Source: Squalus acanthias
Lineage: Eukaryota
Assembly: GCA_030390025.1 (NCBI GenBank)
Contig: CM059432.1
Location: 52,268,001-52,332,000 of the forward strand
Length of the DNA stretch: 64,000 nucleotides
Direction: 5' to 3'
How positions within the stretch are numbered: the first letter of the stretch is position 1; the number at the start of each line of letters is the position of its first letter. The notes beneath the pieces are model-generated. The model did not search any database, was not told where the DNA came from, and saw nothing but the letters and a program-made list of their open reading frames with translations. Of the stretch, positions 11,666 to 47,884 are shown one piece after another. The position numbers and the translations under genes are program-made.

Positions 11666-12019
11666 GAATGGTGTGGGAGAGAACCTGTTTGACAAACTCA
11701 CTCTGGGAGAGAGCGATTAAAGTGACTACTGGGATCAAGCTTATTGTGGTTAGTACTCATGTTTATATAATTGTGTGTGAGACCCCTGCCTAGTAGGGAA
11801 TGATGGCTTGTGACTTTGTACCAAGAGCCGAGACCTGGGCTCTGTAATGTCATTAACTGTAAATAAATTGTTCAATTTTAAATTAAAAAAAAGAACTTAT
11901 TACAGACTGCTGTTAGTATTTTACACTCACTGATGAGGGCTATGTTCAGCACTGTGGAACCCTCCTTTTGTGAGGTGGCTTATTTGGAGGTAATGGATGA
12001 GAAACAATGCATTTAAAAT

Positions 12020-18510: not shown

Positions 18511-19502
18511 ATAAATGACTAGATAATCTGCTTCAGTGATGTTGGCTGAGAGATACATTTTTGACAGGGCACCAGGAGAACTCCCCTGTTCTTCTTCAAA
18601 TAATGGCATAGGATCTCATACATCTTACTGAGAGGGCAGACAGAGCCTCAATTTAATATCTCATCTGAAAGCTGGGCTTCTGACATTGCAGCACTCCTTC
18701 AGTACGGCACTGAAGTGTCAGCCTAGAATAAGTGGGACCTTCTAACTCAGAGGGGAAAGTACCAACTCTGAGCAAGGCTTGACACACCCTTCCTGCTTGG
18801 TGTCCATTCCTACCCCAGCCCACACATGAAGCACTTTGGGACATTTTGCTACGTTAAAGGTACTATATAAGTAGTATTTACTGTTATAATGTATCTGAAA
18901 GTAACATGTAACCTGAAATGTAGCATTTATTCAATTTCCTGCAAAAGGAGAATATATCTTCTCAAGGTAATTAAGGAACTAGATCCATATTGCCTGCAGA
19001 TTATTGTGAACTGAACATATACTGAAAGCTTCTCCCCCACAAAATTGCATTCGGTCAGAGGCAACCTAACATCCCTTCCACTGGATTGCTGCAGATAATT
19101 TGCTCACTGTAAGCAAACTAGGACAGGGTACTGGGTTATGTGAAAGAGTAACGTTAATGTAGGAGATGGGGTGTATAGGAGGATGAAGCAGCAGTACAGA
19201 ATAGGGTAGCAAGGATGCAGGAGAAAGGAATCTGTATGGGAGAGGCAGAGAGGGAAGTAGTAAAAGAAAGAAAGAAAGACTTGCATTTATATAGCGCCTT
19301 TCACGACCACTGGACGTCCCAAAGCGCTTTACAGCCAATGAAGTACTTTTGTAGTGTAGTCACTGTTGTAATGTAGGAAAATATGAGAAGAAAGTATGAG
19401 AAGAAGGGAGTGTGATTTGGCAATGACAATTATAATAGTGGGGATTCGTAGCAGAAAACAGAGGATCGGAGAAGGAAGCAGCAGAGGAAGGAAGCAGTGT
19501 GT

Positions 19503-20002: not shown

Positions 20003-20259
20003 TAATATAATTGTGTGTGAGACCCCTGCCTAGTAGGGAATGATGGCTTGTGACTTTGTACCAAGAGCTGAGACCTGGGCTCTGTAATGTCATTAACTGT
20101 AAATAAATTGTTCAATTTTAAATTAAAAAAAAGAACTTATTACAGACTGCTGTTAGTATTTTACACTCACTGATGAGGGCTATGTTCAGCACTGTGGAAC
20201 CCTCCTTTTGTGAGGTGGCTTATTTGGAGGTAATGGATGAGAAACAATGCATTTAAAAT

Positions 20260-21856
20260 AAAAAGAGGAGATATATTAAATAAACTAATCAAACTCAAAG
20301 AGGGAAAAAAAACCACGGATCACATCTGTGCATTTTAAAAGAATCTAGGGAAGAGATAGCAGAGGCATTACTACACATATTTAATAATTCGTTAGAAAAG
20401 GTGTAGTACCAGGGGACTGGCGGATAGCTAATGTAATATCTATATTTAAGAAGGGAGGTAGAACATGTCCAGGGAACTATAGACCAGTCAGCTTAACATC
20501 GGTGGTAGGAAAAATAATGGAATCCCTACTAAAGGAGAAAATAGAAGAACATCTAGAAGCCAAAAAATATAAAAATGAATAGTCAGCCTAGATTTCAAAA
20601 GGGAGAGTCTTGCTTGACCAACCTCATTGAATTTTTTGAAGAGGTAACAGAGAGAGTAGACATGAGTAATGTAGTAGATGTAATTTACCTAGATTTTCAA
20701 AGGTCTTCGATACGGTACCACATAATAGACTAATGAATAAGGTCAGAGAGTGTGGAGTCAGGGGACAAGTAGCAGATTGGATAGCTAACTGGCTTCAAGA
20801 CAGAAAGCAGAGAGTAAGGTTAAAGGTAGCTATTCACAGTGGCAGAAGGCGGGTAGTGGTGACCACTGTTGTTCACAATTTATATTAACGATTTAGACTT
20901 TGGAATCCAAAACACAATTTCTAAATTTGCGGATGACACCAAATTGGGGGGGGGGGGGAGATAGTCAATGCTGAGGAGGAATGCAACAAATTACAGGAGG
21001 ACATTAATAAACTTGCAGAATGGCATATAATTGGCAAATGAATTTCAACACAGATAAATGTGAGGTATTACATTTTGGTAGGAAGAATAGGGAGGTCACT
21101 TATTACTTGGAGGGTGTGAATCCGGGTGGGGTAGAGGAGTACAGGGATCTCAAGAGTACAAATACACAAATCACTAAAAGTAGTGATGCAGGTTAACAAG
21201 GCCATAAAAAAACAAACAAAGCACTAGGGTTTATTTCTAGAGGGATAGAATTGAAAAGTAGTGAAGTTATGCTAAACTTGTATCGAACCTTGGTTAGACC
21301 ATACTTGGAGTACTGTGTACAATTCTGGTCGCCATATTATATAAAGGACATAGAGGCACTGGAGATGGTGCAGAGAAGATTTACAAGGATGATACCAGAA
21401 ATGCAAGGGTATACCTGTCGGGAAAGGATGAACAGGCTGGGTCTCTTTTCGCTTGACAAAAAAAGGCTGAGGGGTGACCTAATGGAGGTCTTTAAAATTA
21501 TGAAAGGTTTTGAATGAGTAGATACAGAGAGAATGTTTCTACTTGTGGGGAAGAGCAAAACTAGAGGCCATCAATATAAGATACGTCACCAACAAATCAA
21601 ATAGGGAACTCAGAAGAAACTTCTTTACCCAGAGAGTGGTGAGAATGTGAAACTCACTACCACAGGGAGTAGTTGAGGCAAATAGTATAGATGCATTTAA
21701 GAGGAGGCTAGATAAGCACATGAGGGAGAAGGGAATAGAGGGTTATGCTGATAGAGTTAGATGAGGAAAGACGGGAGTAGGTTCGAGTGGAGCATAAATG
21801 CCAGCATGGACTGGTTGGGCCGCATGGCCTGATTCTGTGCCGTATATCCTATGTAA
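20260..21856 (+). mobile_element. CR1 LINE (duplicate of 12020-13627)
   Basis: Same sequence in duplication copy 2. Confidence 0.9.
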
Positions 21857-22734
21857 TCACAAGGCCCCTTGATAGCTGCTGAAGAAAACACCGGGCTTCT
21901 CCTGAGCCACTAACTGTTTCCCCACCCTAGAATAGGGACCCTCTTTCTCTCTGATCATGCACCTGCTCCATGCCACCTGGGGAAAAAAGAGAAGCTTCAT
22001 AGTCTATCCAGGAACATCCTTCTATTTTCACACCACAATTCTTCATACCCACACTTGTTTTTCCTGTTCCTCCACTTACTGCCTGACACAATTGTGCCAC
22101 CCTCTTACCAGGTCCTTCAATGCAGACTGAAGCAGGGCCCAGATTCCTGCTTGGGTACAGCTGCCTTCCTAGCTATGGCACAGCACAAACTTATTCACAG
22201 GGGATGGAACCTTTAAATAAATGTGAAGACCATCGACATGCAAATCGCAGCTTCTAGTGGTCAAAAATTACATTCAAAACTTACCATCGTTCATCAGAAG
22301 TTTCCACTATAAAAAGTCTGCACCATTACTTTTAAAAGTTGAAGATCCTCTGATTCTGAGTCTTTCATGGGGCTTCCATTTGACCTGCTCCTTTAATGTT
22401 GCTGCTGCCTTTATGGTCCAGGTAGTTCCAGGACTTCCTCTCACTTTCTTAGTGCACCCAATAGAGTTAGTGTCTCCACCAGTGCCCCAATGTCTGCCCT
22501 CTCCTAGCTAATGAGGACTTACTGGAAAATCAAGCTCTGGCTCAGCCACAGTGTGGTGTGCCCCTATTGCTCCCAGACAACACTTGCCCATGAAAATTGA
22601 CCATATTATTTTATTACTGAACAAATTTGTGGTGATTAAATTGGAGTCATTAATCCTGCTGCGTGAACGGCATCATGCATTAACTGCATTGTCATTGGTG
22701 TCCTACACCCACTGCAGGAAAAAAAGACCCTAAA

Positions 22735-23462
22735 GCCAACATGGATTTGTTAAAGGCAAATTGTGTTTAACTAACTTGATCGAGTTTTTTGATGAGGTAA
22801 CAGAGAGGGTTGATGAGGGCAATGTGGTTGACATGGTGTATATGGACTTCCAAAAGGCGTTTGATAAAGCAAGGAAGTTATGAAGAACTTTTATAAAACA
22901 CTGGTTCAGCCTCAACTGGAGTATTGTCTCCAATTCTGGGCACCACACTTTAGGAAGGATGTGAAGGCCTTAGAGAGGGTGCAGAAAAGATTTACAAGAA
23001 TGATTCCAGGGATGAGGGACTTCAGTTACGTGGATAGACTAGAGAAGCTGGGGTTGTTCTCCTTAGAGCAGAGAAGGTTGAGAGGAGGTTTGATAGAGGT
23101 GTTCAAAATCATGAGGGGTTAGACAGAGTAGAGAGAGAAACTGTTCCCATTGGTGGAAGGATCAAGAACCAGAGGGCACAGATTTAAGGTGATTGGCAAA
23201 AGAACCAAAGGCGACATGAGGAAAAACTTTTTTACGCAGCGAGTGGTTAAGATCTGGAATGCACTGCCTGAAAGGGTGGTGGAGGCAGACTCAATCGTGG
23301 CTTTCAAGAGGGAATTGGATAAGTACCTGAAGGAAAAACATTTGCAGTGCCACAGGGAAAGGGCAGGTGAGTAGGACTAGCTGAAGTGCTCATGCAGAGA
23401 GCTGACATGGGCTCGATGGGCTGAATGGTTTCCTTCTGTGCTGTAACCATTCTATGATTCTA
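22735..23462 (+). mobile_element. CR1 LINE fragment (duplicate of 14505-15232)
   Basis: Same sequence in duplication copy 2. Confidence 0.87.
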
Positions 23463-25352
23463 AAACAAAACAGAACCACCCTACAAATTTCGCAGAATAC
23501 ATTATCTTAAAAATGACCCCTGGTTGTGCTGAGTTTGTCAATCTCAGGCACGTGGTGATTGGAACACTACATGCAGTTTCAGTGCTGCTTCATTGGGAAG
23601 AGGAAAACTCAGCCAGGGTTCCTGAATGCTATCCAGTTATACTTGCTGGAGGTACAAGTGTTTGTGCATGAGATAATAATGGAGTTGGGTTCAACTCTGT
23701 TGGTCCTTGATGAGGTACCACAGAGCAAGTGGCATATGTGGGAGTATACTCGAGCATGTGTCCCCACCTTCAGGAAATACATAGAAGTTACCACACGGAA
23801 ACAGGCCATTTGGCCTAACCAATTCATGCCAGCATCCACCATCCATGCAAATAAATAGTTTTCATCGCATTTACCCGCCCTGTTCCCATATCCCTTCAAC
23901 CCCTTTTTCTTCATCCAACTATTCGCAGAGCTGGAAAGTGAATAGTTCTTTTTCGGGCCGGCACAGACATGATGGGCTGAATGACCTCCTTTTGTGCCGT
24001 AAACTTCTATGATTCTATCTAATTTGATTTTGACATAAGAGTAGAAGGGTAGGGGAAATATTTGTTGGGAAAACTGGAGGACATGAAAAACAATATGGGA
24101 TTAATGTTGCATTATGTGTCATATTATTAACAGATTCATTAAACATACGATAATTGATAGCAGTGAATATCAACACCGCAGATTGATAGGATGATGTGTA
24201 TAGCTCCTCATATAGCAAATTCTTTAGCTTGGGCTCAGCACTAGAGTAAGAAACCAAAGTTCTTTTATATTGCATTAAAACTTATGCTAGTGATGCCAGC
24301 TCCTGACAGGCAGGTCTTGAGCGGTTCTCTGCAACCCAAATCTAAACTTGCCAGGTCTTGCTAAGGCTGGTAACTGGGAAGACCAATTTTACTGGATCTT
24401 CCCAGCAACTGGCCTAAGCGAATCCAAGCAAGTTTACTTTCAGTTTGCAGCCAACAGTATGAAGCCCATGACTCAGGAACCAGCACTGCTTGCACAGGTC
24501 TAACACAACATTAAAATGGCTCAAGTCACGTTCCTTTTTGTACATTGGTGGCTAACTAGCAGTCTGAGAGCATGGCGTGTGGTTTGTTAGTGAAATAATT
24601 GAATGGAGGCAATATTGAATATGAATAAAAATGTTTGATTGTGATAAAGTAGATAAGATCAGAAAAGGGATGCTTCCTAGCAACAAAAATTGATATTGTG
24701 CTGTAAGGTAATGATTTACAGGGATCAGTTTATCCAGTTATACAAGGTTACAATACAAGTATCATCCTATACTTAGTCTGATATGGGTTTAACACCAGAG
24801 TGAATAACAACAACTTGTTATTTATATTTATATGAACCCTGCAATTAAAATAGTACATAATCATCCCAGTATAAGAGATGCCTTAGTTTGGTATGAGTTT
24901 GGCAATGCTGGAAGTAAGAAACTGGATCTGAATCTGGACATTGTTGAAGGGGTAGTGTATGAAATTGTTCGTCCTCTTTCTCTGATAGCTGTTAAAGGAC
25001 AGTGTGAAAAGTATGAAACATCTCATTTGTGATCTTCAGCCATCATGTCCTGATACTCTGGGAGTTTCTTCCTAAAACCCTCTGCCTTGCTGCATCTCTC
25101 CCCACATTCAAAAGCTTCCTCAAAACCTACCTCTTCAGCCATGCTTTCAGTCATCTCCCCTAACTCCTCTCCTAGGGAGAACAACAACTTACATTATTAC
25201 AACACCTTTCATGCCCTCAAGACCTCCCAAAGCGCTTCACAGTTGATTAATTAATTTTAAATTATAGTCAATGTTGTAATGTAGGCAGATGTGGCAGCCA
25301 CTTGGCACATAGCAAGATCCCACAAACAGCACAGAGATAAATGACTAGATAA

Positions 25353-26739
25353 CAACAGAAAACGCTGGAAAAACTCAGCAGGCCAGGCAGCATCCATGGA
25401 GAGAGAAACAGAGTTAATGTTTCAGGTTGAAGACCCTTCGTCAGAACTGGAAAAAAGCAGGAAATGAAATAGATTTAAAGCAAGTATAATGCTGGAAAAA
25501 GGGGGAGGGGATGAAAGAACAAAAGGGAAGGTCAGTGGTAGTATAGAAGGCAGGAGAGATTAAGAGACATTGAGAGACATTAAGAGATATTCAAGACAAG
25601 AGGAGGTGGTAATGTGACAGGTTGAGGCTAGATGAAGTGTGAAATGCGCTGGCAGAATGAAGGACAGCTGCCAGCTTCAGGGAGGGAAGAAAAAAAGGGG
25701 CCAAACAAAAGGGTGGATGAAAAAATAAAATATGTGTGTATATCTATATCTAGATGTGTCTATATCTATATCTCTATATCTATATCTATATCCATATCTA
25801 TATCTATATCTATATCTGATAGGGGCCGTGGTTATGATCTGAAATTGTTGAATTCTATGTTGAGTCCAGAGGGCTGTAGCGTGCCTAAACGAAAGATGAG
25901 GTGCTGTTCCTCGAGCTTACGCTGAGCTTCCGTGGAACAATGCAAGAGGCCGAGGACGGTGAGGTCAGAGTGGGAGTGGAGCAGAGAATTAAAGTGACAG
26001 GCCACCGGGAGCTCGGGGTTCCCCTTACGGACTGAACGGAGGTGTTCCGCAAAGCGGTCACCCAATCTGTGTTTGGTCTCCTCAATGTAGAGGAGACCAC
26101 ATCGTGAGCAGCGAATACAGTATACTAAATTGCAGGAAGTACATGTAAATCGCTGTTTCACCTGGAAGGGGTGTTTGGGGCCCTGGACAGTGGGAAGGGA
26201 GGAGGTAAAAGGGCATGTGTAGCATCTCCTGCGCTTGCACGGGAAGGTGCCGGATGAAGGGGAAGGGGTACTGGGGGTAGTAGAGGAGTGGACTAGGGTG
26301 TCGCGGAGGAAGCGGTCCCTGCGGAATGCTGAAAGGGGAGGTGAGGGGAAGATGCGTTTGGTGGTGGGATCACGCTGGAGGTGGCGGAAATGGCAGAGGA
26401 TGATCCGTTGAATGTGGAGGCTGGTGGGGTGAAAGGTGAGGACAAGGGGAACTCTATCGTGGTTCCGGGAGGGAGGGGCAGGGGTGAGGGCAGAAGTGCA
26501 GGAGATAGAACGGACACGGTCGAGGGCCGTGTCAACCACAGTAGAGGGGAATCCTCGGTTGAGAAAAAAGGAAGACATGTCGGAAGCACTGGTATGGAAG
26601 GTGGCATCGTCAGAGCAGATGCGGCGGAGACGGAGAAACTGGGAGAATGGAATAGAGTCCTTACAGGAGGTGGGGTGGGAGGAAGTGTAGTCCAGGTAGC
26701 TGTGGGAGTCAGTGGGCTTGTAGTGAATGTTAGTCAATA
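25353..26739 (-). mobile_element. Penelope-like element (duplicate of 17124-18510)
   Basis: Identical 301-aa ORF 25832-26737. Confidence 0.9.
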
Positions 26740-27873
26740 ATAAATGACTAGATAATCTGCTTCAGTGATGTTGGCTGAGAGATACATTTTTGACAGGGCA
26801 CCAGGAGAACTCCCCTGTTCTTCTTCAAATAATGGCATAGGATCTCATACATCTTACTGAGAGGGCAGACAGAGCCTCAATTTAATATCTCATCTGAAAG
26901 CTGGGCTTCTGACATTGCAGCACTCCTTCAGTACGGCACTGAAGTGTCAGCCTAGAATAAGTGGGACCTTCTAACTCAGAGGGGAAAGTACCAACTCTGA
27001 GCAAGGCTTGACACACCCTTCCTGCTTGGTGTCCATTCCTACCCCAGCCCACACATGAAGCACTTTGGGACATTTTGCTACGTTAAAGGTACTATATAAG
27101 TAGTATTTACTGTTATAATGTATCTGAAAGTAACATGTAACCTGAAATGTAGCATTTATTCAATTTCCTGCAAAAGGAGAATATATCTTCTCAAGGTAAT
27201 TAAGGAACTAGATCCATATTGCCTGCAGATTATTGTGAACTGAACATATACTGAAAGCTTCTCCCCCACAAATTGCATTCGGTCAGAGGCAACCTAACAT
27301 CCCTTCCACTGGATTGCTGCAGATAATTTGCTCACTGTAAGCAAACTAGGACAGGGTACTGGGTTATGTGAAAGAGTAACGTTAATGTAGGAGATGGGGT
27401 GTATAGGAGGATGAAGCAGCAGTACAGAATAGGGTAGCAAGGATGCAGGAGAAAGGAATCTGTATGGGAGAGGCAGAGAGGGAAGTAGTAAAAGAAAGAA
27501 AGAAAGACTTGCATTTATATAGCGCCTTTCACGACCACTGGACGTCCCAAAGCGCTTTACAGCCAATGAAGTACTTTTGTAGTGTAGTCACTGTTGTAAT
27601 GTAGGAAAATATGAGAAGAAAGTATGAGAAGAAGGGAGTGTGATTTGGCAATGACAATTATAATAGTGGGGATTCGTAGCAGAAAACAGAGGATCGGAGA
27701 AGGAAGCAGCAGAGGAAGGAAGCAGTGTGTCTGTGCAGGATGAAGGGGAAAGCAATATGGGAAGGAAACTACAATGGGGAGAACAGCAGCAATACAGGAG
27801 AGGAGGAACTCTACAAGAGAGGGGTGTGTGAATATAGTAGGAAGGAGTTGGTGATATGAGGGTGGGGATAGTG

Positions 27874-29571
27874 TGTAGAATTCGCAATATATCGCGATTT
27901 TGTTAATAAGGAGAAAACACAGAGTTTCGTTCAAACAGCTTTTATTTCAGCAGAATGCTGGCAGGTTTAAAGTGGACACAAGCAGCCTGTAAAATGGCCG
28001 CCGCACCTCGTGACAGAACATTCTAGACTTTTCAACAGGCAGACAAGATGGCGTTCCAATAAACATTTGTGCAAGATCGATTAAGATTCAGCACAGTGAA
28101 GATAATACACGAGACATTATGGGTTTGCAGTATACACATAGATACTGAAATCGGTCTCCCAGGTACAAAGGAAAGCCATTGTACCGAGTAATCAAGGGCC
28201 CATCCAAAAGACATTAATATGTAAAATCCCGACGACTCTACGATGAGAGAGCCGTTAGCAGGTAGTTATACAGGACACTTGGAAGCCCCAAACCCCTCCA
28301 GGGAGAACACCGACCGATTTAACAATGGGAGAAATATTAACAGGTACTCAGACATTTACGAGTAGCCCCGAAACCCATTAAGAACGGAGATCACCCATAC
28401 AAGACATTTGGGCGCCAAACCCTAAACAAAAGAATGGACATTATAGTTGGGCGGGAAACGGAAGATTTTGCACTATAATTGCAGGCTCCAAACCGTCCAT
28501 TCGCTCTCTTGCTCCTGTGCTTTTATCCGGTCGATTCGTAACCTCGTGGCTGCTCCTGTGTACTCGTAGTTGGGCTCGCTCCTGCTTGCCTGTTGCCTCT
28601 TCTGAAAAGACTGTTGAACTTTCTGATCCGATTCGGATCTACCTCGTGTCGCGTAACGAAGACCTATGTTGGTAACTGGCAGCGGAACCGAAGGCCCGAG
28701 ATGAGATGAGATGAGATGAGATGAGAAGAGAGGAAGACCATATCCATCGCCACGGTCAGTAAATCCCGACCGCGCCTGTAGGTCGATTAGCCAAGTTTTC
28801 CTCGCCAGGAAGACTTCTTCGAACTTATAACGAAACATATTGCATCGACGATAACTGGACTGTGCCCAAAGTAACTGGAACGTGAAAACATATCGTATCG
28901 ACGATATTGACAACTGTGCTCGAAGAGTACCTGTTAAGCCAACCAACACAGGTCTTCATCACAGCAGACGGTCCAGCCTGCTAGCCGGAGCAGCAGAAGC
29001 AAGTAAACAAGTGGGACCAGGAGATCTCCTGACCGACACGTGGGTGCTGCGGTGAAAAGCATCCGATCAGCTATTCGGAATTTCTCCGAGTTATCACGAG
29101 TGGTGAGCATGAGTCTCGAGATCCTACGAATCTAGTTTAGGATAGATATTGATAGGGGAGGGTTTAAGGATTAAGGATATTTGTAATGTGTGCCCCTATT
29201 TACTTTGTGCCGTTCGTTCCTCGTTTCCCTAAGATCGACTATATAACTGTTTGTAAGATTGTACTGTCATTAATCTGTGCTTATGACATGTATTTCATAA
29301 TCTTAAGTATCATGCAATAAAGATTTTCCATTTCGTACCATTCAAACCAAGTCTACATGAGTTTTATCTCCATTACTGCTCTCGCATCTAAGTCCAGTGT
29401 CTAGAACCGTAAGGGAGAGTGATTCGAACCACTCACAGGTGTGTCTAGTGTTCCCAGACTGGCTGGAGACCAGAACAGGCAACAAGGCCTAGACCCGCAC
29501 TGACATACAGGCTGCACAGAGCCGCGTGAATCTCACAGGCTGCGAGACACGCAGGGTCAGAATCCCTTACA
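27874..29571 (+). repeat. 5' LTR (1698 bp)
   Basis: Starts tgtagaattcg, ends cccttaca. GC box 28449, TATA-like 28474, (gagat)n at ~28698-28726, aataaa 29316-29321. Confidence 0.97.
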
Positions 29572-29575
29572 GAAA

Positions 29576-31387
29576 ATGGCGACCGCGGCAGGACACTGGC
29601 AGCGAGAGGGTAGTGTGTTAGATTTTGGAATGACTGTACGAAATGTTATGCAGGAAAAGATAGCGGATTATGTGTTTGGAAAGGTTAATCTAACTAAGAA
29701 ATGGATAAGTGAATTGTTAGCGGATAAGAGCCCACTAGAGGCAGCTGAAAGGTGGACAGATAGTAAAGAACATAGAAAGACACTTGAGAAAGCAGTCTGG
29801 CTTATGTGTTACAAAAGGCAGGTTCAGATTTCAAACCAGACCATTACAGCGCTAGTAGCTCGAATCAGTCATTTAGAGGGAGAAATGGAGGAGAAGGTTT
29901 CTGGAGGGGAGGTGCTCATTAAGAATTTAAATGAGTTACACCAAGAAAGCCAGGAAGTCTCCAGTCACCTTAAAACAAGGATAGATTATCTCGAGTGCCA
30001 GGTCACTGAGGCAAAATTGAATGAGAGCAGGTTAAAGGAAAGATGTAACCGCCAAGCTGCCCAGATAAGAACTCAAGAAGAAAGCTTGATGGGGGTTAGG
30101 GCGGCATATAAGTTGGCCCTTGAGGATAAGTTTCAGGGAGCCGATCATAGCGCCTGCCAAAGGGAGATAGAGCACCTCAAAAAGGCCGTGAACAATGCGA
30201 ACGGCATGGTGTGCCTTATCAATCCGTCGGCGCACCAGCCGCTAGTAAATGAGAGATTTAGAAAATCCCCACCAAGTAAAGCAGAAGAAGTAGTAGCCAC
30301 TGCGCCCTCCGCGCCACCCAGCTATTCAGAAACCTGGGTTAGGGAGGAAGCAATGGAAGAAACAAAAGAGCCCATTGAAAAGGAAGTAGAAAAGGGATCG
30401 TTGTATCCAGTAACGGGTATTAAAAGGGGCCCAAGCAGAAACGGTGGGGAAGAACCGGGGGATCTCCTCGGACAGCTGGTGTTGCCTCACAGTTCACATC
30501 AGCTGAGAGCTATGATAAATCACGTACGGAAGCTGACCGAGGTAGACGACCCTTCCGTACATTTCAGAGAAGTTGAGCAAGCCGCAGCCATTAACGGCTG
30601 CGATGATGGGGAAACAGCAAAAATGCTGCTGTTCTCATTAGACAGCTCGGTCCTTCAGTGTCTCTCAGGCGAGAGCAAGAGGGGAACCAAGAGTTATGAG
30701 GAATTAAAGAACGAGGTCCTGGAAGTGTTGGGGGCGAACGACGAAGGTCCGTTTGCTAGAGTGGGACAGACAGTGCAGATGGAGGGAGAACCCCCGAAGG
30801 TTTTTGCCGACAGGCTGTGGCCAGTATATGAGCGCAGCTGTCTAGGTGCGCCCGAGCGCGAAGATGTGGAAGGTTTAGCTTTAACTCATTGGCTTAGGTG
30901 CATAATAGCCAACAGTTTACCAGCCGTTAGAGAGCAGGCAAAAGCATGGTTTGATCCCAATGACCCCAACATTACGGAAGAGTCGGTCTTGAATCGACTC
31001 ACGTTAGGTTATCGCAATATAAGGGGTATGGCAACACGTCCCCTTAAGGGAAGAGTACATGAGGTACGACCCGCAGCCCCGTATCAAAGAGAGTGGCATC
31101 AGGAGGGTAATCGCGCCCCACAGGCAAGTAATGCTTGTTACGGGTGTGGGAAGACAGGGCACTGGCGCAAGCATTGCAGGAACCCTTGGAAGGATTCCAA
31201 GGATAAAAATCCCGCGGTCCGAGCCCAGGCGCCTGTCCCGGCTAAGGAAGCCAAGGCACCCACCCCTCCCGACGACCTCGAAGCAGTGTTAGGAGCCATG
31301 CGCAAGCTGGTCTTGAATGCGCGTGGACAGGTGGCGGTCGCAACCGGCCCCGTAGGTGTCGCAGGACCGTCTAATAGTACCCAATGA
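29576..31387 (+). CDS. gag: Gag polyprotein (603 aa): coiled coil, late domains, capsid-like region, CCHC zinc knuckle
   Basis: Uninterrupted ORF directly after the LTR; CYGCGKTGHWRKHC at 31136-31177; PSAPPSY at 30305-30325. Confidence 0.92.
   Translation: MATAAGHWQREGSVLDFGMTVRNVMQEKIADYVFGKVNLTKKWISELLADKSPLEAAERWTDSKEHRKTLEKAVWLMCYKRQVQISNQTITALVARISHLEGEMEEKVSGGEVLIKNLNELHQESQEVSSHLKTRIDYLECQVTEAKLNESRLKERCNRQAAQIRTQEESLMGVRAAYKLALEDKFQGADHSACQREIEHLKKAVNNANGMVCLINPSAHQPLVNERFRKSPPSKAEEVVATAPSAPPSYSETWVREEAMEETKEPIEKEVEKGSLYPVTGIKRGPSRNGGEEPGDLLGQLVLPHSSHQLRAMINHVRKLTEVDDPSVHFREVEQAAAINGCDDGETAKMLLFSLDSSVLQCLSGESKRGTKSYEELKNEVLEVLGANDEGPFARVGQTVQMEGEPPKVFADRLWPVYERSCLGAPEREDVEGLALTHWLRCIIANSLPAVREQAKAWFDPNDPNITEESVLNRLTLGYRNIRGMATRPLKGRVHEVRPAAPYQREWHQEGNRAPQASNACYGCGKTGHWRKHCRNPWKDSKDKNPAVRAQAPVPAKEAKAPTPPDDLEAVLGAMRKLVLNARGQVAVATGPVGVAGPSNSTQ
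29577..29594 (+). promoter_or_regulatory. Primer binding site, tRNA-Arg(TCG)
   Basis: TGGCGACCGCGGCAGGAC, 5 nt after the LTR. It is complementary to the 3' 18 nt (GTCCTGCCGCGGTCG-CCA) of vertebrate tRNA-Arg-TCG as I recall that sequence. Confidence 0.85.
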
Positions 31388-32497
31388 CTAGAGCCCACGC
31401 AGCCTGCCTACCTGTGTCCTTTTAAAAGACACGCACAGGAGGGGGTCTGCGGTGAGGAGGCCAGGTTAAAAGAGCAGGCCTTGCGGGAGGAGAACGCCCG
31501 CTTAATAGGGAAAATAGATGGGCTGGAAGGGCAGCTTAGAGAGCAGGCCCTGCGGGAGGAGAACGCCCGATCAATGGGAAAGTTAGACGTGCTCAGGCTA
31601 GAAGCGCAGCTTAGAGAGATAAAAGCAGCCTACAGGGTAGCCAAAAGCCGGGAGTATGAGGATGTAAACCAATGCAAACTGTACCAGCCAGGTGCGCAGG
31701 GGAAAACTACAGGGGTAAATCCCGCCAATGGGAAAGCACAGCCCCAGGTAGGACCACAAGGCACACAGGCAGGCATAGCAGCTTGCATCAGGGGAAGGGA
31801 CATCCCGGACGATCATGCAGCGTTTTTCTGGAATTGGGGGTTAGATGAGGAAGAACTCAGGGTACCCTGGTCAGATGAGGATAGTGCAGATGAGCATAGT
31901 GATGATGACGGGTGGTTCCTGAGGAACGGTCTGGAGGGAATGGGGGCTGTAGGTAGAGATCCACACAGGGTGGACACACAAGCTGCAGGTCCCGAGGACA
32001 GGAGGGAGGAGCTAGAGGAGGCAGGGCCAGCCGCTATAGGAGCACAGAGAGTACCGGTGTGGCTCCCAGAGATGTGGCCGCCCGCTTTGAACGTCCAGTC
32101 CTCAGGGGAGGCAGAGATCACGAGTGAAGGGCCGCCTGCTGGGCCGAGCAGGGCGGAGCCACGAACTGCCAGCCCCGAGGTTAGGGAGGCGGAGTCAGCG
32201 GAGGTGGAGCCGGCGACTGTGATGGAACCCCAGGTCATCCCGATGGAGGTCTCGGAACCCGGTCCGTCCGTCACGGAACCCCCGCCCATAGCAACTCCCC
32301 GTAGGTCAAGTAGAGAACCCCAGCCCAGGAGGATGTGGTCATGTCCCCAGACTGCCCCAAGGCGAAAATTTAAGGTTAAGATAACCCAGGTACAGACCGG
32401 CCACATCGCAGCAGTAACAGGCTGCGGCAGATCAGAGGGAAGGGTCAGTGCCCTCCCACCGTCGGGAAGAGCTCGCAGCAGCCTTCTCAGAATTTAA
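31388..32497 (+). CDS. ORF2, in frame with gag after TGA-CTAG; coiled-coil + acidic/Pro-rich protein of unknown function in the pol position
   Basis: No stop from 31388 to 32494 in the gag frame; no protease, RT, RNase H or integrase motifs seen. Confidence 0.7.
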   Translation, partial: LEPTQPAYLCPFKRHAQEGVCGEEARLKEQALREENARLIGKIDGLEGQLREQALREENARSMGKLDVLRLEAQLREIKAAYRVAKSREYEDVNQCKLYQPGAQGKTTGVNPANGKAQPQVGPQGTQAGIAACIRGRDIPDDHAAFFWNWGLDEEELRVPWSDEDSADEHSDDDGWFLRNGLEGMGAVGRDPHRVDTQAAGPEDRREELEEAGPAAIGAQRVPVWLPEMWPPALNVQSSGEAEITSEGPPAGPSRAEPRTASPEVREAESAEVEPATVMEPQVIPMEVSEPGPSVTEPPPIATPRRSSREPQPRRMWSCPQTAPRRKFKVKITQVQTGHIAAVTGCGRSEGRVSALPPSGRARSSLLRI

Positions 32498-32803
32498 AGG
32501 GGCCGCCCTGAGAACGGGCGGCACTGTAAAGTTATAGTAATAAGTTTTCAGTTTATAGTTCAAGGTTAAGTGTTAATATTTCAAGGTTAAGTTTATAGCT
32601 TTAATAAGGTTAAGTTTGTAGTGTTTTTAACAGAAAACGATAAAATGATGGGAGCTTTAAAGATAGGTTTAGTTGAAGTTTATTCAGCGAACGTTGAAGT
32701 TTACGTGAGGCGAGGTCAGGGGACCCGCTCACCCTTCACAAAAGCCAGAGACTCTTGCGAGGCTGGCTACCTCATTCTATCTGATCACAGGAACCAAGGA
32801 AGG

Positions 32804-35155
32804 ATGGAACGAATTCTAGTATTGCTCGTGGCAATCGGATGTGGATTGGCCTATCGAGGCCGCACCAAGGATGTCGTGGTGTTTGGATGTTCCGGGGACA
32901 CGGCCCCCATCGCGGTGGATGGGACCGGAAGACGGGAGGCAGAGGAGACCAGCACCTATTTCCACAAGGGAAGGTGGCCAGGATGGCTGGGAACGAACTC
33001 AACGGAGTATTCCAGCACGTCGGGGTTTGCCTACCAAGAGACTTCTTTACTGTGCCCCAAAGTAAGGATCATCGCACCCAGGATCAGCGTCACCGTCGGC
33101 AAACGGATTTGTTTGACTTGTAGTGGGAAGGTCCCATTGAGCCGATGGTGGTGGCTGCGAAAGCTGAGCAAAACTATGAGAAACTCTTCGGTCGAGTGGG
33201 AACGACTGGGTAATAATACCCATCGGACAATTACGGGGACAGACGGACAAGTGAAAGTCTGTTGGGACAAATGGTGGGAACCGGATGAGGGAATTTATGT
33301 ATGTATGTGGGGGTCAAAGTACGTTTGCCCCAAAGGCATCTCCATATTTTTTATTAATCAATGGCAGGATAACGGACAGGGGATGAGGTGGGATGCGAGC
33401 ACCAGGGGGTGCGGAGCCCCATTCTCCCCGATCCCAGTAAATGCCACTGAGCTCATTACGCGCCCACGCAAAGCCCCGCCCACGATTCCGGTGGTTCTAG
33501 CTGAGGAAGAAGGGTGCCCTAAAACTAGTAAGGGACCCGGGAATGGTTTGGTACTGGTCCCCACAGACCAGATACTATTTCAGGGGGTACATTACGCGGT
33601 GGCCTCGGTGATTTTAAATCTCACTGAGGTGCGGTTACCAGAGTGGTGCCCCAAAAAGACGGAACAGTTGTACCAGGTCCTGTTGACCAAGATGTTCAGA
33701 CAATTTTACGAATTCGATTTCGCGGAAATTGATAAAACAAGTTTGTACACCGCGCCACAGGAAGTTTTGGATCAAGTAGGGAGGCAAAGAAGGGGTTTGG
33801 TGAACGATGCGTTCACTGCTTTTAACACAGGTACATCTGTGGTCAACGCTCTAGACAGTGTGGAGCTGCAGACCCAGATTAATGGTTTAAAGACACAATT
33901 AAAAGACATTCTAACAGATGAGAATAAAGTGGTAGGGTCAGGTCTACACGAGGACCAAGCCATGACCCTCCATTTAAAGGAAATTATAGCAGAGTTGGAG
34001 AAACATGCAAAGACGGTAAATGCCCTGATTAGGGAAGATCGGAATGCATCCGATCAAGCTGCGCAGAACGAGGTGTGCGTGCTTTACGGGGCGTGGTTAC
34101 TGGGCGAGGGCCACAGTAATTTGGAGGATTTAAAACAAGGTTTGGTTCCGTCCTGGATAAGTAACAAACACCTACGGGCGCTCCACCCTTTTCAGAATGC
34201 ATTAAGCCCGTGCCAGCTCAGGCTAGCTTCAGAAGCATACCCAGTCCCCGTGGACTGCGGACGATCAAACCATACCATTATGGGTATAGTTTTACGCATG
34301 CCGGTTTTGGGCGACACAGCAAAGCCCGCCCCGGTATATCGGGTAGAGAACATCGGTGTCATTCAGGGGGGAGCCCACATTCGTTATGCAGCGGTTCCAC
34401 CTTACGTCATCCGCTGGGAGCAAACGATGACAGGTACAGATCTCTCTGGTTGTCGTGGCAGGGGAGCACACATAATACTGTGCCCCCAGCACTTGAATGC
34501 CTTTTTAACACCACAGTGCGGGTTCAGAACGGCTGGCGCCAAGTCCATGAATTGCACCATGGAGGCAATGGCACAAGATCATGTGCCTCCGCAGGTAGCA
34601 TACATCGGGGGTGGAACATATTGTGTTACCACTGCAGCGCAACACTACCAGCATGGAAACCGTAGCCGGTGTCCGGTGAGTGACAGCAGTTTCTGTTTTA
34701 AACCCAGGGCGGAAGTTCAAGTAGCACAACAGCGAATTATCCCAATCCCTGAACCATCCACTGTTCATCTCACGGTAAAAGAGAATTTCACCGACTTGCA
34801 GCGATTCGTCGCGCATTTTGGATACCTCATTCCCCCTCTCCCTGAACACCTCACCAAGCTTTTAAAAGCCGTCGCGGTGTCACAGAAACACTTTTACACA
34901 TTAGAGCAGAAAACTGTCGAAATAGGAACAGACATTCTGGATATAGTAGTTCCACCGTGGTGGAATCTGTTCACTAATATTGAAGTACCTTCATGGATCA
35001 GAATAGCCTCCCACATTTTAGTCGTATGCCAAGTTTTCATTGTAGTGTACCTATTGGTCGTACATTGTAAAAGAGACAAACGCCTCACCAAGCATGAAAA
35101 CACGGGAGAGTGGCGAGAACGTTACGTGCGCGTGCACGATGAAAGCACCGTGTAA
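32804..35155 (+). CDS. env: Envelope glycoprotein (783 aa): signal peptide, Ig-like domain, furin site, F-type fusion subunit, TM anchor
   Basis: MERILVLLVAIGCGLA signal; RQRR|GLVN at 33782-33793; heptad repeat; Cys-rich region; TM at ~35003-35068; about ten N-glycosylation sequons; splice acceptor at 32790. Confidence 0.9.
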   Translation: MERILVLLVAIGCGLAYRGRTKDVVVFGCSGDTAPIAVDGTGRREAEETSTYFHKGRWPGWLGTNSTEYSSTSGFAYQETSLLCPKVRIIAPRISVTVGKRICLTCSGKVPLSRWWWLRKLSKTMRNSSVEWERLGNNTHRTITGTDGQVKVCWDKWWEPDEGIYVCMWGSKYVCPKGISIFFINQWQDNGQGMRWDASTRGCGAPFSPIPVNATELITRPRKAPPTIPVVLAEEEGCPKTSKGPGNGLVLVPTDQILFQGVHYAVASVILNLTEVRLPEWCPKKTEQLYQVLLTKMFRQFYEFDFAEIDKTSLYTAPQEVLDQVGRQRRGLVNDAFTAFNTGTSVVNALDSVELQTQINGLKTQLKDILTDENKVVGSGLHEDQAMTLHLKEIIAELEKHAKTVNALIREDRNASDQAAQNEVCVLYGAWLLGEGHSNLEDLKQGLVPSWISNKHLRALHPFQNALSPCQLRLASEAYPVPVDCGRSNHTIMGIVLRMPVLGDTAKPAPVYRVENIGVIQGGAHIRYAAVPPYVIRWEQTMTGTDLSGCRGRGAHIILCPQHLNAFLTPQCGFRTAGAKSMNCTMEAMAQDHVPPQVAYIGGGTYCVTTAAQHYQHGNRSRCPVSDSSFCFKPRAEVQVAQQRIIPIPEPSTVHLTVKENFTDLQRFVAHFGYLIPPLPEHLTKLLKAVAVSQKHFYTLEQKTVEIGTDILDIVVPPWWNLFTNIEVPSWIRIASHILVVCQVFIVVYLLVVHCKRDKRLTKHENTGEWRERYVRVHDESTV

Positions 35156-35607: not shown

Positions 35608-37313
35608 TGTAGAATTCGCAATATATCGCGATTTTGTTAATAAGGAGAAAACACAGAGTTTCGTTCAAACAGCTTTTATTTCAGCAGAATGCTGGCAGGT
35701 TTAAAGTGGACACAAGCAGCCTGTAAAATGGCCGCCGCACCTCGTGACAGAACATTCTAGACTTTTCAACAGGCAGACAAGATGGCGTTCCAATAAACAT
35801 TTGTGCAAGATCGATTAAGATTCAGCACAGTGAAGATAATACACGAGACATTATGGGTTTGCAGTATACACATAGATACTGAAATCGGTCTCCCAGGTAC
35901 AAAGGAAAGCCATTGTACCGAGTAATCAAGGGCCCATCCAAAAGACATTAATATGTAAAATCCCGACGACTCTACGATGAGAGAGCCGTTAGCAGGTAGT
36001 TATACAGGACACTTGGAAGCCCCAAACCCCTCCAGGGAGAACACCGACCGATTTAACAATGGGAGAAATATTAACAGGTACTCAGACATTTACGAGTAGC
36101 CCCGAAACCCATTAAGAACGGAGATCACCCATACAAGACATTTGGGCGCCAAACCCTAAACAAAAGAATGGACATTATAGTTGGGCGGGAAACGGAAGAT
36201 TTTGCACTATAATTGCAGGCTCCAAACCGTCCATTCGCTCTCTTGCTCTCTTGCTCCTGTGCTTTTATCCGGTCGATTCGTAACCTCGTGGCTGCTCCTG
36301 TGTACTCGTAGTTGGGCTCGCTCCTGCTTGCCTGTTGCCTCTTCTGAAAAGACTGTTGAACTTTCTGATCCGATTCGGATCTACCTCGTGTCGCGTAACG
36401 AAGACCTATGTTGGTAACTGGCAGCGGAACCGAAGGCCCGAGATGAGATGAGATGAGATGAGATGAGAAGAGAGGAAGACCATATCCATCGCCACGGTCA
36501 GTAAATCCCGACCGCGCCTGTAGGTCGATTAGCCAAGTTTTCCTCGCCAGGAAGACTTCTTCGAACTTATAACGAAACATATTGCATCGACGATAACTGG
36601 ACTGTGCCCAAAGTAACTGGAACGTGAAAACATATCGTATCGACGATATTGACAACTGTGCTCGAAGAGTACCTGTTAAGCCAACCAACACAGGTCTTCA
36701 TCACAGCAGACGGTCCAGCCTGCTAGCCGGAGCAGCAGAAGCAAGTAAACAAGTGGGACCAGGAGATCTCCTGACCGACACGTGGGTGCTGCGGTGAAAA
36801 GCATCCGATCAGCTATTCGGAATTTCTCCGAGTTATCACGAGTGGTGAGCATGAGTCTCGAGATCCTACGAATCTAGTTTAGGATAGATATTGATAGGGG
36901 AGGGTTTAAGGATTAAGGATATTTGTAATGTGTGCCCCTATTTACTTTGTGCCGTTCGTTCCTCGTTTCCCTAAGATCGACTATATAACTGTTTGTAAGA
37001 TTGTACTGTCATTAATCTGTGCTTATGACATGTATTTCATAATCTTAAGTATCATGCAATAAAGATTTTCCATTTCGTACCATTCAAACCAAGTCTACAT
37101 GAGTTTTATCTCCATTACTGCTCTCGCATCTAAGTCCAGTGTCTAGAACCGTAAGGGAGAGTGATTCGAACCACTCACAGGTGTGTCTAGTGTTCCCAGA
37201 CTGGCTGGAGACCAGAACAGGCAACAAGGCCTAGACCCGCACTGACATACAGGCTGCACAGAGCCGCGTGAATCTCACAGGCTGCGAGACACGCAGGGTC
37301 AGAATCCCTTACA
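35608..37313 (+). repeat. 3' LTR (1706 bp)
   Basis: Matches the 5' LTR apart from an 8-bp tandem duplication (tcttgctc) near 36241-36256; aataaa at 37058-37063. Confidence 0.97.
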
Positions 37314-38019
37314 AGTGGTAGGTGATAATGCGCTTTGGATCTTGAGTCCACCCACTGGTTTCTGCATGTATCTGAATTGGATGTCAGTGGTCCGAATGTC
37401 AATTCAGCTAGTTTTAGTGGGAGGAGACAGGTCTCAGGTCTGGGTTTATCATTTCTACAGTTGCCAACCCACGATTTTCTGTCTATTTACTTTAATGGGC
37501 AGAAAATCATGGGCTGGCGAGGGCCGACGCACAAAGCCACTGCCTGTCTTTCAGAATTAATCAGGCCTCCTTTCACCAATATTAATGGGCCTAAAGTGCA
37601 GACTGAATTAATTCCCACTATTAATTGCATAGATTGTGATCTGAAATGCTGGAATTTTAGAACAAATGCATACTTTCAACTGTAGTGTTAGCAGTGCCTT
37701 TCAGAAAGATCAGTAAGAGTATACGGTGACTCCCTATGTCCTTCAACCAGTCTACTTTTCTTGTGATACAACAAACCTCTCCACACACTTTCCCATGTGT
37801 AGGAGTATGGATGTTATCAGCCAAGCAAAGCTTTAGGTATGCAAACTATGTAATGACATCACACATGCTCTACAGTTCAGGCACAATAGAGCTCCTTGAA
37901 CTCAAAGACAAACATTGAAGTTCAAAATTAAAATAGATAACATACCAAAAATATAACTTTAGTCATATGTTTTTCTTTCAAGATCTTTTGATTTTTTTAC
38001 ATTTTATAATTAGATTTTC

Positions 38020-40530
38020 TGTTCATTGTGCCACACATCATTTCCAGCTCAGAGGACAGGCAGACAGATAACCCCCCGAACTGGAAAATTTCATCAACTT
38101 TGCTTCAAAATTCCACCCCTCCCTCGCCTTCACATGGTCCATATTCGACTCTTCCCTTCCTCGACTTCACTATCTCCATTTCTGGGGATAGGCTATCGAC
38201 CAATATCCACTATAAGCCCACTGACTCCCACAGCAACCTTGATTACACTTCCTCCCACCCCGCTTTCTGTAAGGACTCTATTCCATTCTCCCAGTTTCTC
38301 TGTCTCTGTCGCATTTGTTCTGATGATGCCACATTCCACACCATATGTCTTCCTTTTTCCTCAACTGAGGATGCCCCACCACTGTGGTTGACATGGCCCT
38401 CAACCGTGTCTGTCCCATTTCCCACACTTCTGCCTTCACCCCTTCCCCTCCCTCCCAGAAGCATGAGAGGCCCCCCCTTGTCCTCGCCTTCCACCCCACC
38501 AGACTCCACAATCAACGGATCATCCTCCGCCATTTCCGCCACCTCTAGTTTGATGCCACCACCAAACACATCTTCCCCTCCCCTTTCAGCATTCCGAAGG
38601 GACCATTCCCTCTCCGTTACCTTGGTCCACTCTTCCTCACTCCAAACACCCGCTCCCCTTCCCATGGCACCTTCCTGTGCAAGCACAGGAGATGCAACAC
38701 CTACCCTTTCACCTCCTCTCTTTCCACCGTCCAGGGCCTCAAACTCTCCTTCCAGGTGAAACAGCAATTTACTTGTACTTCTTTCAATTTAGAATACTGT
38801 ATTCGCTGCTCACGATGTGGTGTCCTCTGCATTGGGGATGACCAAATTGGGTGATCGCTTTGCTGAACATCTCCATTCAATCACAAGCATGACCCTAAGC
38901 TTCCGATCATTTGCCATTCTAATTCTCCGTCCCACTCCCACTCTGACCTCGACCTCCTGCACTGTTCCAATGAAGCTCAACAGAAGCTCGAGGAACAGCT
39001 CCTCATTTTTCAATTAAGCATTTTACAACCATCCGGACTCAACATTGAGTTCAATAACTTCAGATCATAACCACTGCTCCCATTTTTTTGGACAGCAGGT
39101 GCTGATAGTGTAAACAGTAAATTCTAGAGATACTCATCAGGTCAGACAGCATCTGTGGAGAGAGAAACAGAGTTAACATTTCAGGTCAATGGCCTCAGAT
39201 GAAAAGTCATCGACCTGAAACAATGGCCCAGAAATTCGGGTCCCCACGGGTGAGTACGTGCTGTGTACTCACCTGTAGGGCCACCGGAAGAGCCAGTTTC
39301 GCGCATGCATGGGAAACCGGAACTTCCGGTCTCTTGAAGGAAGGGGTTCGCGGGTCAACCGCGTGCGTGGGAGAGGCAGCGCGTACGCATCAAACTTCCA
39401 CTTTTTTTACAGGTTTCTCAGTGCGGCTAAGTCCCTAGCAGCTGCGCGTGGAAAAAGCAGGCGCAAGGCCTGCTTTTAACAAGGTAAGAGGTGAATTAAG
39501 TAAAATTGAAACATTTTTTCCACAGGTTTATCATTTTTAAATACTTTAAAGAAAGGTAAGTTTATTTTTAGCCCCGTTAAAAACTTTAATAAATTTTTTC
39601 AAAAATTTAAATTTTTGTTTAAAATAGTTAATTTATGTAATTTATAGTTATTTAAAAAATGTGATTTTTAAAAAAATTATTTGAAGTTTTACTTAGGTTT
39701 TGGGGCCGATCTCTATTCATAGATTTGACAGGTCTTCCTGTCAAATCTATGAATGGAGATTCCCTGCTCTGATTGGCTCCCCATGGACCACGTGATCCCA
39801 GGGGACGGTGCAAACTAGTTGCGCCGCTGGGATACGCGAGGACTGCACACCGGCAGCTGGAGGAGGCCCAGGATCGGAATCCCACGCGGGCCCACAGCAC
39901 AACGGCAGGTGCGCTATGTAAGTGCACCCGCTATGCTTGCACCCGAGGGAAGCCTCCGACCCGAATTTCTGGGCCAATATTAACTCTGTTTCTCTCTCCA
40001 CAGATGCCTGATCTGCTGAGTATTTCCAGCATTTTCTGTTTGTATTTCAGATGTTCAGCATCTGCAATATTTTGCTTTTGTTTTAGATGCTACTAATGGT
40101 TCTGCTGTTGCCATTTACAGCTCCTCTAGACCCATCGTTTGTTTCTTTACTTGTCCCATTACCCACCCCCTATTGCCTTGCACCATCATCCCTTTTGTCA
40201 TTTAATCACTCCTGCCCTCCACCCTATCACAGATCTTCATAAGAACAAAAGAACATAGGAATTCGGAGCAGGAGTAGGCCACACGGTCCCTTGAGTCTGC
40301 TCCGCCATTCAATAAAATCATGGCTGAGTTACTTCAACTCCACTTTCACCTTTGTTCTTTCCTCCCCTCCCTCCCCCCTTTTCCCTGACTCTGCACTTGC
40401 TTATAAACTGTTAAATCTCTAATTTTTCTCAGTTCTGATGAAAGGTCATCGAACTGAAACATTAACACTGTTTCTCTATCCATAGATGCTGCCTGACCTG
40501 CTGGGTATTTCCAGCTTTTTCTGTTTCTAT
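38020..40530 (+). mobile_element. Decayed Penelope-like element with nested insertions in its 3' UTR
   Basis: LPFLD, YKPTDSHSNL, IPFSQFL, LGDRFAEH motifs across frameshifts (38020-39070); tail with hammerhead at 40431-40467. Confidence 0.85.
39225..39975. mobile_element. PIF/Harbinger-type MITE
   Basis: TIR ggcccagaaattcgg...ccgaatttctgggcc with 3-bp AAT TSD; related to 42931-43684. Confidence 0.85.
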
Positions 40531-45880: not shown

Positions 45881-47884
45881 TGGTCGAGGGCGTCCTGCAA
45901 GGCCATCTGAAGTCTCCCGCACGGACACTCAGCAGCCTTCCACCAGCCGTGCTGCAGCCACTGGGCCAACACTTCGTAGGAGCACTAGAGTAGGCAAAGG
46001 CACAGTAATGAGAGGCACTAAGAGATTGCACAAGGGTGAATAGGTAATATTTTTGGTGTAAATATGTGTTCACTGATTTTTGATAAATTTATTAATTCAG
46101 TTTGAATTCTTTTGTGATGTGTCTCATTTCAGCTTTGCGCTGTGATATGGCCTGCGACAGGGATGGAATGATGGGGATTTGGTGAGCAATGGGGATCTGG
46201 GGTTTAATTCATTGGAACCGCAGTCTGATGAGGCGATCTCAGACCGCCCTTCCGGAAGGCCGATTGAGTGGCTGCCTCCTCCCTCGCTCCTGTTACTCCT
46301 CTTCCTCCTCCTCCTCCTCGTCCTCCTCATCTTCCTCTTCTTCCTTGTTGTACTCCTCCCCCTCCTCTCCCTCTTCCTCCTCTGAGGTGGTCCCGCAATC
46401 CCTGGTGGCAAAGGCTGGGCCCTCATGATAACCAAGTTGTGGAGCATGCAGCAGACCACCCACGAAATGGGACACCCACTAAGCTGAGTACTGGAGGGTT
46501 CCTCTCGAGCGGTCAAGGCAGCGGAACCGTTGCTTCAGCAGGCCGATGGTCTGCTCGATGATGTTCCTGGTGGCAGCATGGCTCTCATTATATGAGTGCT
46601 GGGCAGACGTATTGGGGTTGCAGAGGGGAGTTATGAGCCAGGTGAAGAACGGATAGCCCTGGTTTCCGGGAAGCCAGCCGCAAGCTTGACGTGGTGGCTG
46701 GAAGAGTGCTGGCACACCGGTCTTGCGCAGGATGAAGGCTTTGTGGCTGCTGCCAGGATAGCAGGTATTGACATTGAGGATTCGCTGTCTGTGGTCGCTC
46801 ACCAACTGCACAGTAAATGAATGGTAGCCTTTGCGGTTACGGAAGATCTCAGGATTGTTATGCGGTGCCCGCAAAGCCATGTGGGTGCAGTCGGTGGCGC
46901 TCTGCACCATGGGGAATCCCGCTGTCCTGGCAAAGCCACATGCATGCTCGTCCTGCTTCTCTCTGGTGATGGGGAAGGAAATGTACTCCCTTCTCCTACT
47001 GTAGAGAGCCTCTATGACCTCCCGGATGCAGCAATGGACGGCGAACTTCGAGATGTTAGCTATATCTCCTGTTGCAGACTGGAAAGATCCTCTGGTGAAG
47101 AAATTGAGGGTGACGGTGACCTTGACTGCCACTGTGAGAGCTGTGGTTGCCCTGGTCTGAGGCTGGAGGTCTGGTTGCAGGAGATGGCAGAGTTTTTAGA
47201 CCACCTCCTTGGTGAAGCAGAGCCTTCTAATGCCCTGCTCCTCACTTAATTGGAGGTAGGAGAAGTGCTCTTGGAATACCCCCGGAGGGTAAGGCCTTCT
47301 GTTGGGAGCCCTGATGGCCCTCCTCCTCCCTCTGGGCACATGTTCCAGTCTTTCTCGCTGCCTCCGCTCCCTCCACAGTAGATCCTGGAGGGCGAGGTCC
47401 ACTGCCAGTACAACCCCCATTAATGTTACCAAGTGTAGCAGTTTGATTCTTTGAAGAATAAATGTAGCTACTTTTTAGTTGCCACAACACTCCTGATACA
47501 AAAGAACCTTGAAATTACTGAATTAATCTGTTGGAGTATGTGAAACTGACAAGAAACCACTGAAACTGTACTAACCTGACAGCTGCGAGTCATTACTGAT
47601 GCTTCACACCAGCTCTCCCTGTCGGTGTTTACTCCAGATGTTAAGGTAGGTGGCGACAAGCAATTTAGTAGATCGGGCAGTCAGTGAGCATTGCACACTC
47701 ACTGACATCACAATCCACCTGGCGTTGACGTTCCCTGTGATAACTCTTACCGCCGTCGCTCTGGGGGAGCGGGATTTGGTGTGTGGCGCTGGATTTGCCT
47801 CGCCCCAGCGATACTGCTCTCGTGCCCAGTTAGCGCATCTGCTGGCGCTAACGGGAGACGCTAAGGGGACGAATGTTTCCCCCA
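45880..47884 (-). mobile_element. Partial PIF/Harbinger transposon (transposase + one end)
   Basis: CpG-rich subterminal region ending gaatgtttccccc at ~47884; left side truncated. Confidence 0.6.
46200..47420 (-). pseudogene. Harbinger (HARBI1-like) DDE transposase, disrupted
   Basis: RRPYPP..F, AVKVTVTLNFF, AGFPMVQSATDCTH, NRKGYHS, YPGSSH, RNIIEQTIGLLKQRFRCLD, CCMLHNL, acidic tail. In-frame stop at ~47196, frameshift near 46480, altered catalytic motif (GNQGY for GDxGY). Confidence 0.88.

Follow-up and report, generated by a model that had tools for sequence, protein, structure and literature searches.

A predicted immunoglobulin-like head on the F-type-like envelope protein of a young retroelement in Squalus acanthias

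The genome of Squalus acanthias carries, within the 64,000 nucleotides that we call the window (GenBank assembly GCA_030390025.1, contig CM059432.1, positions 52,268,001 to 52,332,000, forward strand), a retrovirus-like element with an intact envelope gene, env. Between its two long terminal repeats (LTRs) lie gag, a second open reading frame (ORF2) and env, and no pol (Table 1). Our subject is the front of Env. Residues 136-240 are predicted to form an immunoglobulin (Ig) domain of the V/I-set, carried on a Pro-rich linker ahead of what is probably a fusion protein of the F type. An earlier note on this DNA had proposed such a domain, placed it in a retroviral surface subunit (SU) frame and counted 844 aa for the ORF, its length from a GTG at 32621. 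The note missed the probable start of Env at M54 (32804), favored because a hydrophobic stretch follows.

Table 1. Features of the window (residue numbers count from the first ATG of env)
Feature	Position	Strand	Basis or remark
5' LTR (TGT...ACA)	27874..29571	+	AGTG target-site duplication just before, 27870-27873
gag, 603 aa: coiled coil, capsid-like region, CCHC knuckle	29576..31387	+	ORF; weak zf-CCHC, E 0.29
ORF2, occupies pol's place	31388..32497	+	in frame after gag stop (TGA CTA)
env ORF, intact	32645..35155	+	836 aa from first ATG
Signal-peptide-like stretch	32804..32851	+	hydrophobic run after M54, by eye; similar starts in relatives
N-terminal head extension, residues 70-135, holds C82	32852..33049	+	conservation 53-55% in three relatives
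Ig-like domain, residues 136-240	33050..33364	+	motif, conservation, structure model, feature matches
Post-Ig segment (C256) and Pro-rich linker	33365..33514	+	sequence; least constrained part of Env
F2-like part	33515..33793	+	CP...GP-x-GL motif through furin-type RQRR (33782-33793)
F1-like part	33794..35065	+	fusion-peptide-like stretch, heptads, Cys-rich region, second heptad, transmembrane segment
3' LTR	35608..37313	+	purine tract before; AGTG after, 37314-37317
ORF with TALE-homeodomain-like stretch (...WLYEHR)	6275-6643	-	by sequence
GIY-YIG-like ORF, Penelope-type element	17603-18349	-	by eye
GIY-YIG-like ORF, Penelope-type element	25832-26578	-	by eye
GIY-YIG-like ORF, Penelope-type element	38243-39083		by eye
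Harbinger transposase-like piece	46479-46910	-	by eye
CR1-like reverse transcriptase pieces	12344 and 54028		by eye

The case for the Ig domain begins with its motif. The letters from which it had been proposed, ISVTVGKRICLTC, WWW and DEGIYVC, are all present in the translation of 32645-35155, and the geometry is as claimed: C159 (codon from 33119) and C220 (codon from 33302) lie 61 residues apart, Trp168-170 lie 9-11 residues past C159 (about 10 had been stated), and the Pro-rich linker behind the domain has seven prolines within residues 257-290. The V/I-set hallmarks are all here, namely a Cys spacing within 55-75, a Trp on strand C and D-x-G-x-Y-x-C. Written as C-x(8,16)-W-x(30,65)-[DE]-x-[GA]-x-Y-x-C, the pattern turned up in 26 of 20,000 shuffled versions of the ORF; the window's six frames (127,996 codons) contain it a single time, at the head itself. 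C159-C220, W168-170 and DEGIYVC are kept in 46 of 46 loci, with D replaced by E in 26; these loci were selected by similarity, four are duplicated and one is the window itself. Single cysteines are lost in some later copies and database proteins. The head region has eight cysteines in all (82, 137, 156, 159, 206, 220, 228 and 256), among them two further pairs around the domain that the earlier note did not mention, C156/C206 and C137/C228. We infer the pairings 159/220 (the B-F bond, from register), 156/206 and 137/228. Two glycosylation sequons, N180 and N190, lie in the domain.

The predicted fold of residues 136-240 is a two-sheet beta-sandwich of Ig topology. Its strands run B 155-160, C 168-174, D 194-199, E 202-207 and F 217-223, with a short helix at 212-214. 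Against domains of CRTAM, JAM-A, titin and neuroplastin the model has a root-mean-square deviation of ~2 Å over 80-90 residues, with structural-alignment identities to V/I-set domains of 7-17%. CRTAM is also the best PDB Ig match (E 0.019). A VIA search with the head model, in a library clustered at 40% identity, listed Ig chains in 50 of 50 rows. An independent model points to an Ig fold as well, and so do language-model features. Pfam's Ig_3 matched at 11.3-18.6 bits, short of its curated cut-off of 30. This is the pattern throughout: several tests agree, and each falls below its formal threshold. A BFVD search gave nothing at E<=0.001; its weak matches (E>=0.16) include viral Ig proteins of pox- and herpesviruses. 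A single-sequence AlphaFold model of the domain (predicted local distance difference test, pLDDT, 43.7; unspecific VIA matches) was set aside, and in the head extension (residues 70-135) model pLDDT is mostly <55.

Behind the linker the layout is that of the F type (lokiretrovirus-like) and not the SU/transmembrane (TM) arrangement. RQRR at residues 380-383 reads R-X-R-R, not literally RXKR, and is followed (by eye) by a fusion-peptide-like stretch, coiled coil and transmembrane segment (~35003-35065, likewise by eye), as in lokiretroviruses. The lokiretrovirus Env set out by Wang and Han (PMC7947760) has a signal peptide, basic cleavage site, fusion peptide, coiled coil and transmembrane segment and resembles paramyxo/pneumovirus F; from this description and the layout, the window Env is probably of the F type, by analogy and not by a direct match. 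Neither hmmscan nor profile searches matched PF00523 to Env or its relatives. Across the species' own genome PF00523 found nothing, though the control was also silent, and PF12259 gave 11 sub-threshold matches near the profile's C-terminal end. The only sequence link to the F type is Baculo_F on the relative P0039 (E 0.0011), which aligned to the core profile at 99.7% probability. Profiles A2, A4, A5 and P0034 found nothing useful among PDB sequences. Canonical TM proteins (TLV_coat and gp41 types) had no Pfam match at E<=1, nor any in 33 core members at E<=0.1; a lone weak match to a HERV-K chain (E 0.16) covers the C-terminal heptad only. Homologues of the F1-like part are 19-76% identical.

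Among 1.84 billion representatives searched, 49 matched Env; 15, all gene predictions, were examined in detail. Homologues with names come from a skate and a sawshark, which fits a cartilaginous fish as host. The CP...GP-x-GL motif is common to all distant relatives, and distant full-length matches align only from it onward. In front of it they differ. P0014 (bamboo shark) has an Ig-like head by its UniRef name (Atlas score 0.85-0.87, a lead only), whereas the head of P0034 is V-set-like (E 0.045) but lacks the Cys pair. The frog proteins P0019 and P0048 have heads with a Cys...Trp...G-x-x-x-C pattern, seen by eye and without a Pfam match. The shark proteins P0013 and P0023 have a Cys-rich head, and P0038 and P0047 from coelacanth are headless. 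The S. acanthias genome adds more head types (L059-L090, at least six further Env lineages, some with very short heads). With differing heads or none in the same slot, the head is likely an exchangeable module for gripping cells. IMG/VR held no relative. In some database gene models (P0002, P0003, P0012 and P0039) host sequences of Niban, zinc-finger, cadherin and F-box type are joined to pieces of Env; these are probably artefacts of annotation.

A tree of 18 fusion cores (six rows under half filled, three long branches) has Ig-like heads on either side of its deepest supported split and makes P0034 sister to headless P0038 (support 97/97). We infer that the slot was refilled or lost several times in the lineage. 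Hhalign joins the three subtypes of the IgB head, at 94% probability for two pairs and 9% for the third. IgB against the window head scored 18.6, the best of 60 shuffles 18.4, which is no link, and no other pair was linked among ten head groups. Either one old capture followed by divergence or repeated captures would therefore fit.

The head is maintained by selection and varies more than the core does. In comparisons with three relatives, the nonsynonymous difference (pN) of the Ig segment is 0.21-0.22 and its synonymous difference (pS) 0.77-0.82 (saturated); pN is 0.11-0.12 in the F1-like part, and the linker has pN 0.28-0.31 and pS 0.47-0.52. Within the lineage, head identity holds at 62-64% while synonymous sites are saturated. 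A captured host domain is a plausible origin. No host Ig protein occurred among the 49 matches, nor among six matches of the head profile at E<=10. The top three feature matches of the head are unnamed clusters of 109-116 aa (two with mollusc records, score 0.94), a possible lead to the source of the domain.

The element itself is young, many-copy and retrovirus-like. Its LTRs differ by a single 8-nt indel and no mismatches. All 58 scored genome matches, a lower bound on copy number, have 99-100% protein identity and no stops; for the 19 other fetched copies DNA identity is 98.1-99.8%, and the same pol-less upstream region is present in 18. Because the window element lacks pol, it would have to obtain it from a relative. 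There are older families with the same head, at 52-66% identity. One older copy, L042, has gag, a broken pol (reverse transcriptase, RT; two RNase H-like regions; integrase) and env, so that for the family gag-pol-env does lie between LTRs. Its Pol has RT_RNaseH/RT_RNaseH_2 and then RNase_H, as in the layout of a tether plus a second RNase H, and its best PDB match is an RT-RNase H of murine leukemia virus type across both RNase H-like regions. Zf-CCHC, weak in the window gag, reaches E 0.0027 in that of the relative L046. Next to the 5' LTR, GAAAA followed by TGGCGACCGCGGCAGGAC (29572-29595) overlaps the gag start codon; we take it to resemble a tRNA primer site of the Ser type.

ORF2 has no Pfam match. 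It is 40% identical to the same slot of L046 and 47% identical over 45 aa to the gag of L045, a portion of it resembles the Gag coiled coil, and it is composed of the pol start, that coiled coil and an acidic, Pro-rich tail. The in-frame continuation past the gag stop (31385-32497) matches the pol slot of L045 and L046. TGA CTA is, we presume, a stop-readthrough motif, and translation through the gag stop into ORF2 is likely. ORF2 might be related to the 'smc-like' gene described for lokiretroviruses.

Several copies are paired ~7.7 kb apart, the unit length of the element (for example G000:C7:29046468 and 29054190), which suggests tandem proviruses with a common LTR. Near-identical env DNA occurs in sequencing runs from six organisms, so the element is common to several species or to several labels. 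None of the runs listed with it is an RNA run. Of 15 runs, four were searched: the single raw RNA run among them gave no read, which does not count against expression, and the other three are contigs of uncertain kind. Elsewhere in the window, an 8.2-kb near-identical tandem duplication (11765-19334 and 20005-27562, a run of N between) is possibly an assembly artefact, and the homeodomain-like ORF is presumably an exon of a TGIF-like host gene.

What, then, might the head do? We think it somewhat more probable than otherwise that the Ig domain serves for attachment, as a head that sits on a Pro-rich stalk, binds a host surface protein and brings or triggers the fusion core. Head position, purifying selection and the exchange of heads between lineages favor attachment. 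The precursor would begin at M54, shed its signal peptide and be cut by furin at RQRR, leaving head, linker and F2-like part on the membrane-anchored F1-like part. A trimer would carry three Ig heads, each on a flexible stalk, with which to hold on to a protein of the host surface, most likely an adhesion molecule that is itself of the Ig superfamily. One chain would then do what paramyxoviruses divide between an attachment protein and F.

The head might instead be aimed at immunity, acting on shark leukocytes through one of their inhibitory or adhesion receptors, or shielding the core from antibody, while the core attaches. The pox- and herpesvirus proteins among the weak BFVD matches, the sequons N180 and N190 and the headless relatives would all suit such a role. 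We consider it unlikely: no close host immune receptor was matched, and non-Ig Cys-rich heads in the same slot suit general attachment better than mimicry. Strong conservation of the head within the lineage, many conserved tryptophans and eight cysteines able to clasp it shut could also describe a structural cap or folding aid that binds no ligand itself and steadies the trimer in its prefusion state. The linker beneath it is variable and Pro-rich, however, and relatives have unrelated heads or none in its place, and a cap seems to us a poor prospect. Poorest is a non-Ig beta-sandwich of viral origin with a lookalike Cys/Trp pattern, for which sub-threshold scores, the unplaced G strand and a PDB over-rich in Ig chains can be cited, against Ig in every listed VIA row despite 40% clustering, the agreement of independent model and language-model features, and the rarity of the motif by chance.

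Attachment by an Ig head can be set in a wider frame, which we offer tentatively, with rather more doubt than belief. In F-type retroviral envelopes from sharks to frogs, the N-terminus would be a cassette-like slot that has time and again taken in captured adhesion domains of the Ig superfamily (at least four Ig-like types that do not align with one another) as well as other small domains. All would be receptor binders, making Env a single-chain attachment-plus-F protein in an undescribed, still spreading chondrichthyan branch of lokiretroviruses. Lokiretroviruses pose the question of how a fusion protein of the F type reaches its target cell when no separate attachment protein is there to help, and a discrete, soluble head would give direct access to the receptor. 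If heads are exchanged while the core stays constant, such envelopes would document in nature how fusion machines gain targeting modules.

Among known systems, paramyxo- and pneumovirus F (PF00523) has its parts in the same order, with a short F2-like piece before the cleavage site, a likeness of layout with no sequence match to the window Env. Such F proteins have no Ig head and partner a separate attachment protein. V/I-set domains of CRTAM, JAM-A, titin and neuroplastin share the B-F Cys spacing, the strand C Trp and D-x-G-x-Y-x-C; unlike typical members, the window head has extra Cys pairs, a Trp-rich E-F segment and no placed G strand.

Lokiretroviruses combine the Env parts listed above in one protein (PMC7947760 and PMC9040795). 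In the pol-bearing relatives here, too, RT and integrase are accompanied by a first RNase H-like region (the tether) and by a second RNase H. Xenopus tropicalis and Latimeria, which have Env relatives, are both among the hosts that PMC7947760 lists. What sets the window apart is a ~105-aa Ig-like head inside a 220-aa extension, undetected PF00523 similarity and the absence of pol. Neither 'immunoglobulin' nor 'Ig-like' appears in the text of PMC7947760 or the examined part of its supplement. The literature searched, including PMC12440569, PMC13709493, PMC8672886 and two bioRxiv preprints, gave no Ig domain in such an Env; mention in supplements or Repbase is possible, and the UniRef label of P0014 is already Ig-like. 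The element would extend retroelements with an F-type Env to cartilaginous fishes, where the screen, as reported in PMC7947760, had 0 of 6 chondrichthyan genomes positive. Zebrafish BHIKHARI elements, as described in bioRxiv 10.1101/2024.03.25.586437, are relatives of lokiretroviruses that likewise are young, exist in many copies, lack pol and have a Gag with a coiled coil (Bik-1 a single gag ORF, Bik-2 without pol and env); the window element differs in retaining an intact env and an extra ORF.

Known gene captures by endogenous retroviruses (ERVs) replace env or sit beside it; in this they are unlike an Ig head that is fused to an Env left intact. In CrocERV31, according to Chong et al. (PMC4299795), a whole recent host nectin3 mRNA (three Ig domains, ~76% identity to the host gene) replaces env. 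Like the head described here, it puts an Ig-superfamily module at the env position of an ERV, under purifying selection and with a speculated binding role. Unlike it, the window has one highly diverged domain, with no detectable donor, fused in frame to an intact fusion core. Nectin3 in place of env in a crocodilian ERV is the nearest precedent in the literature searched.
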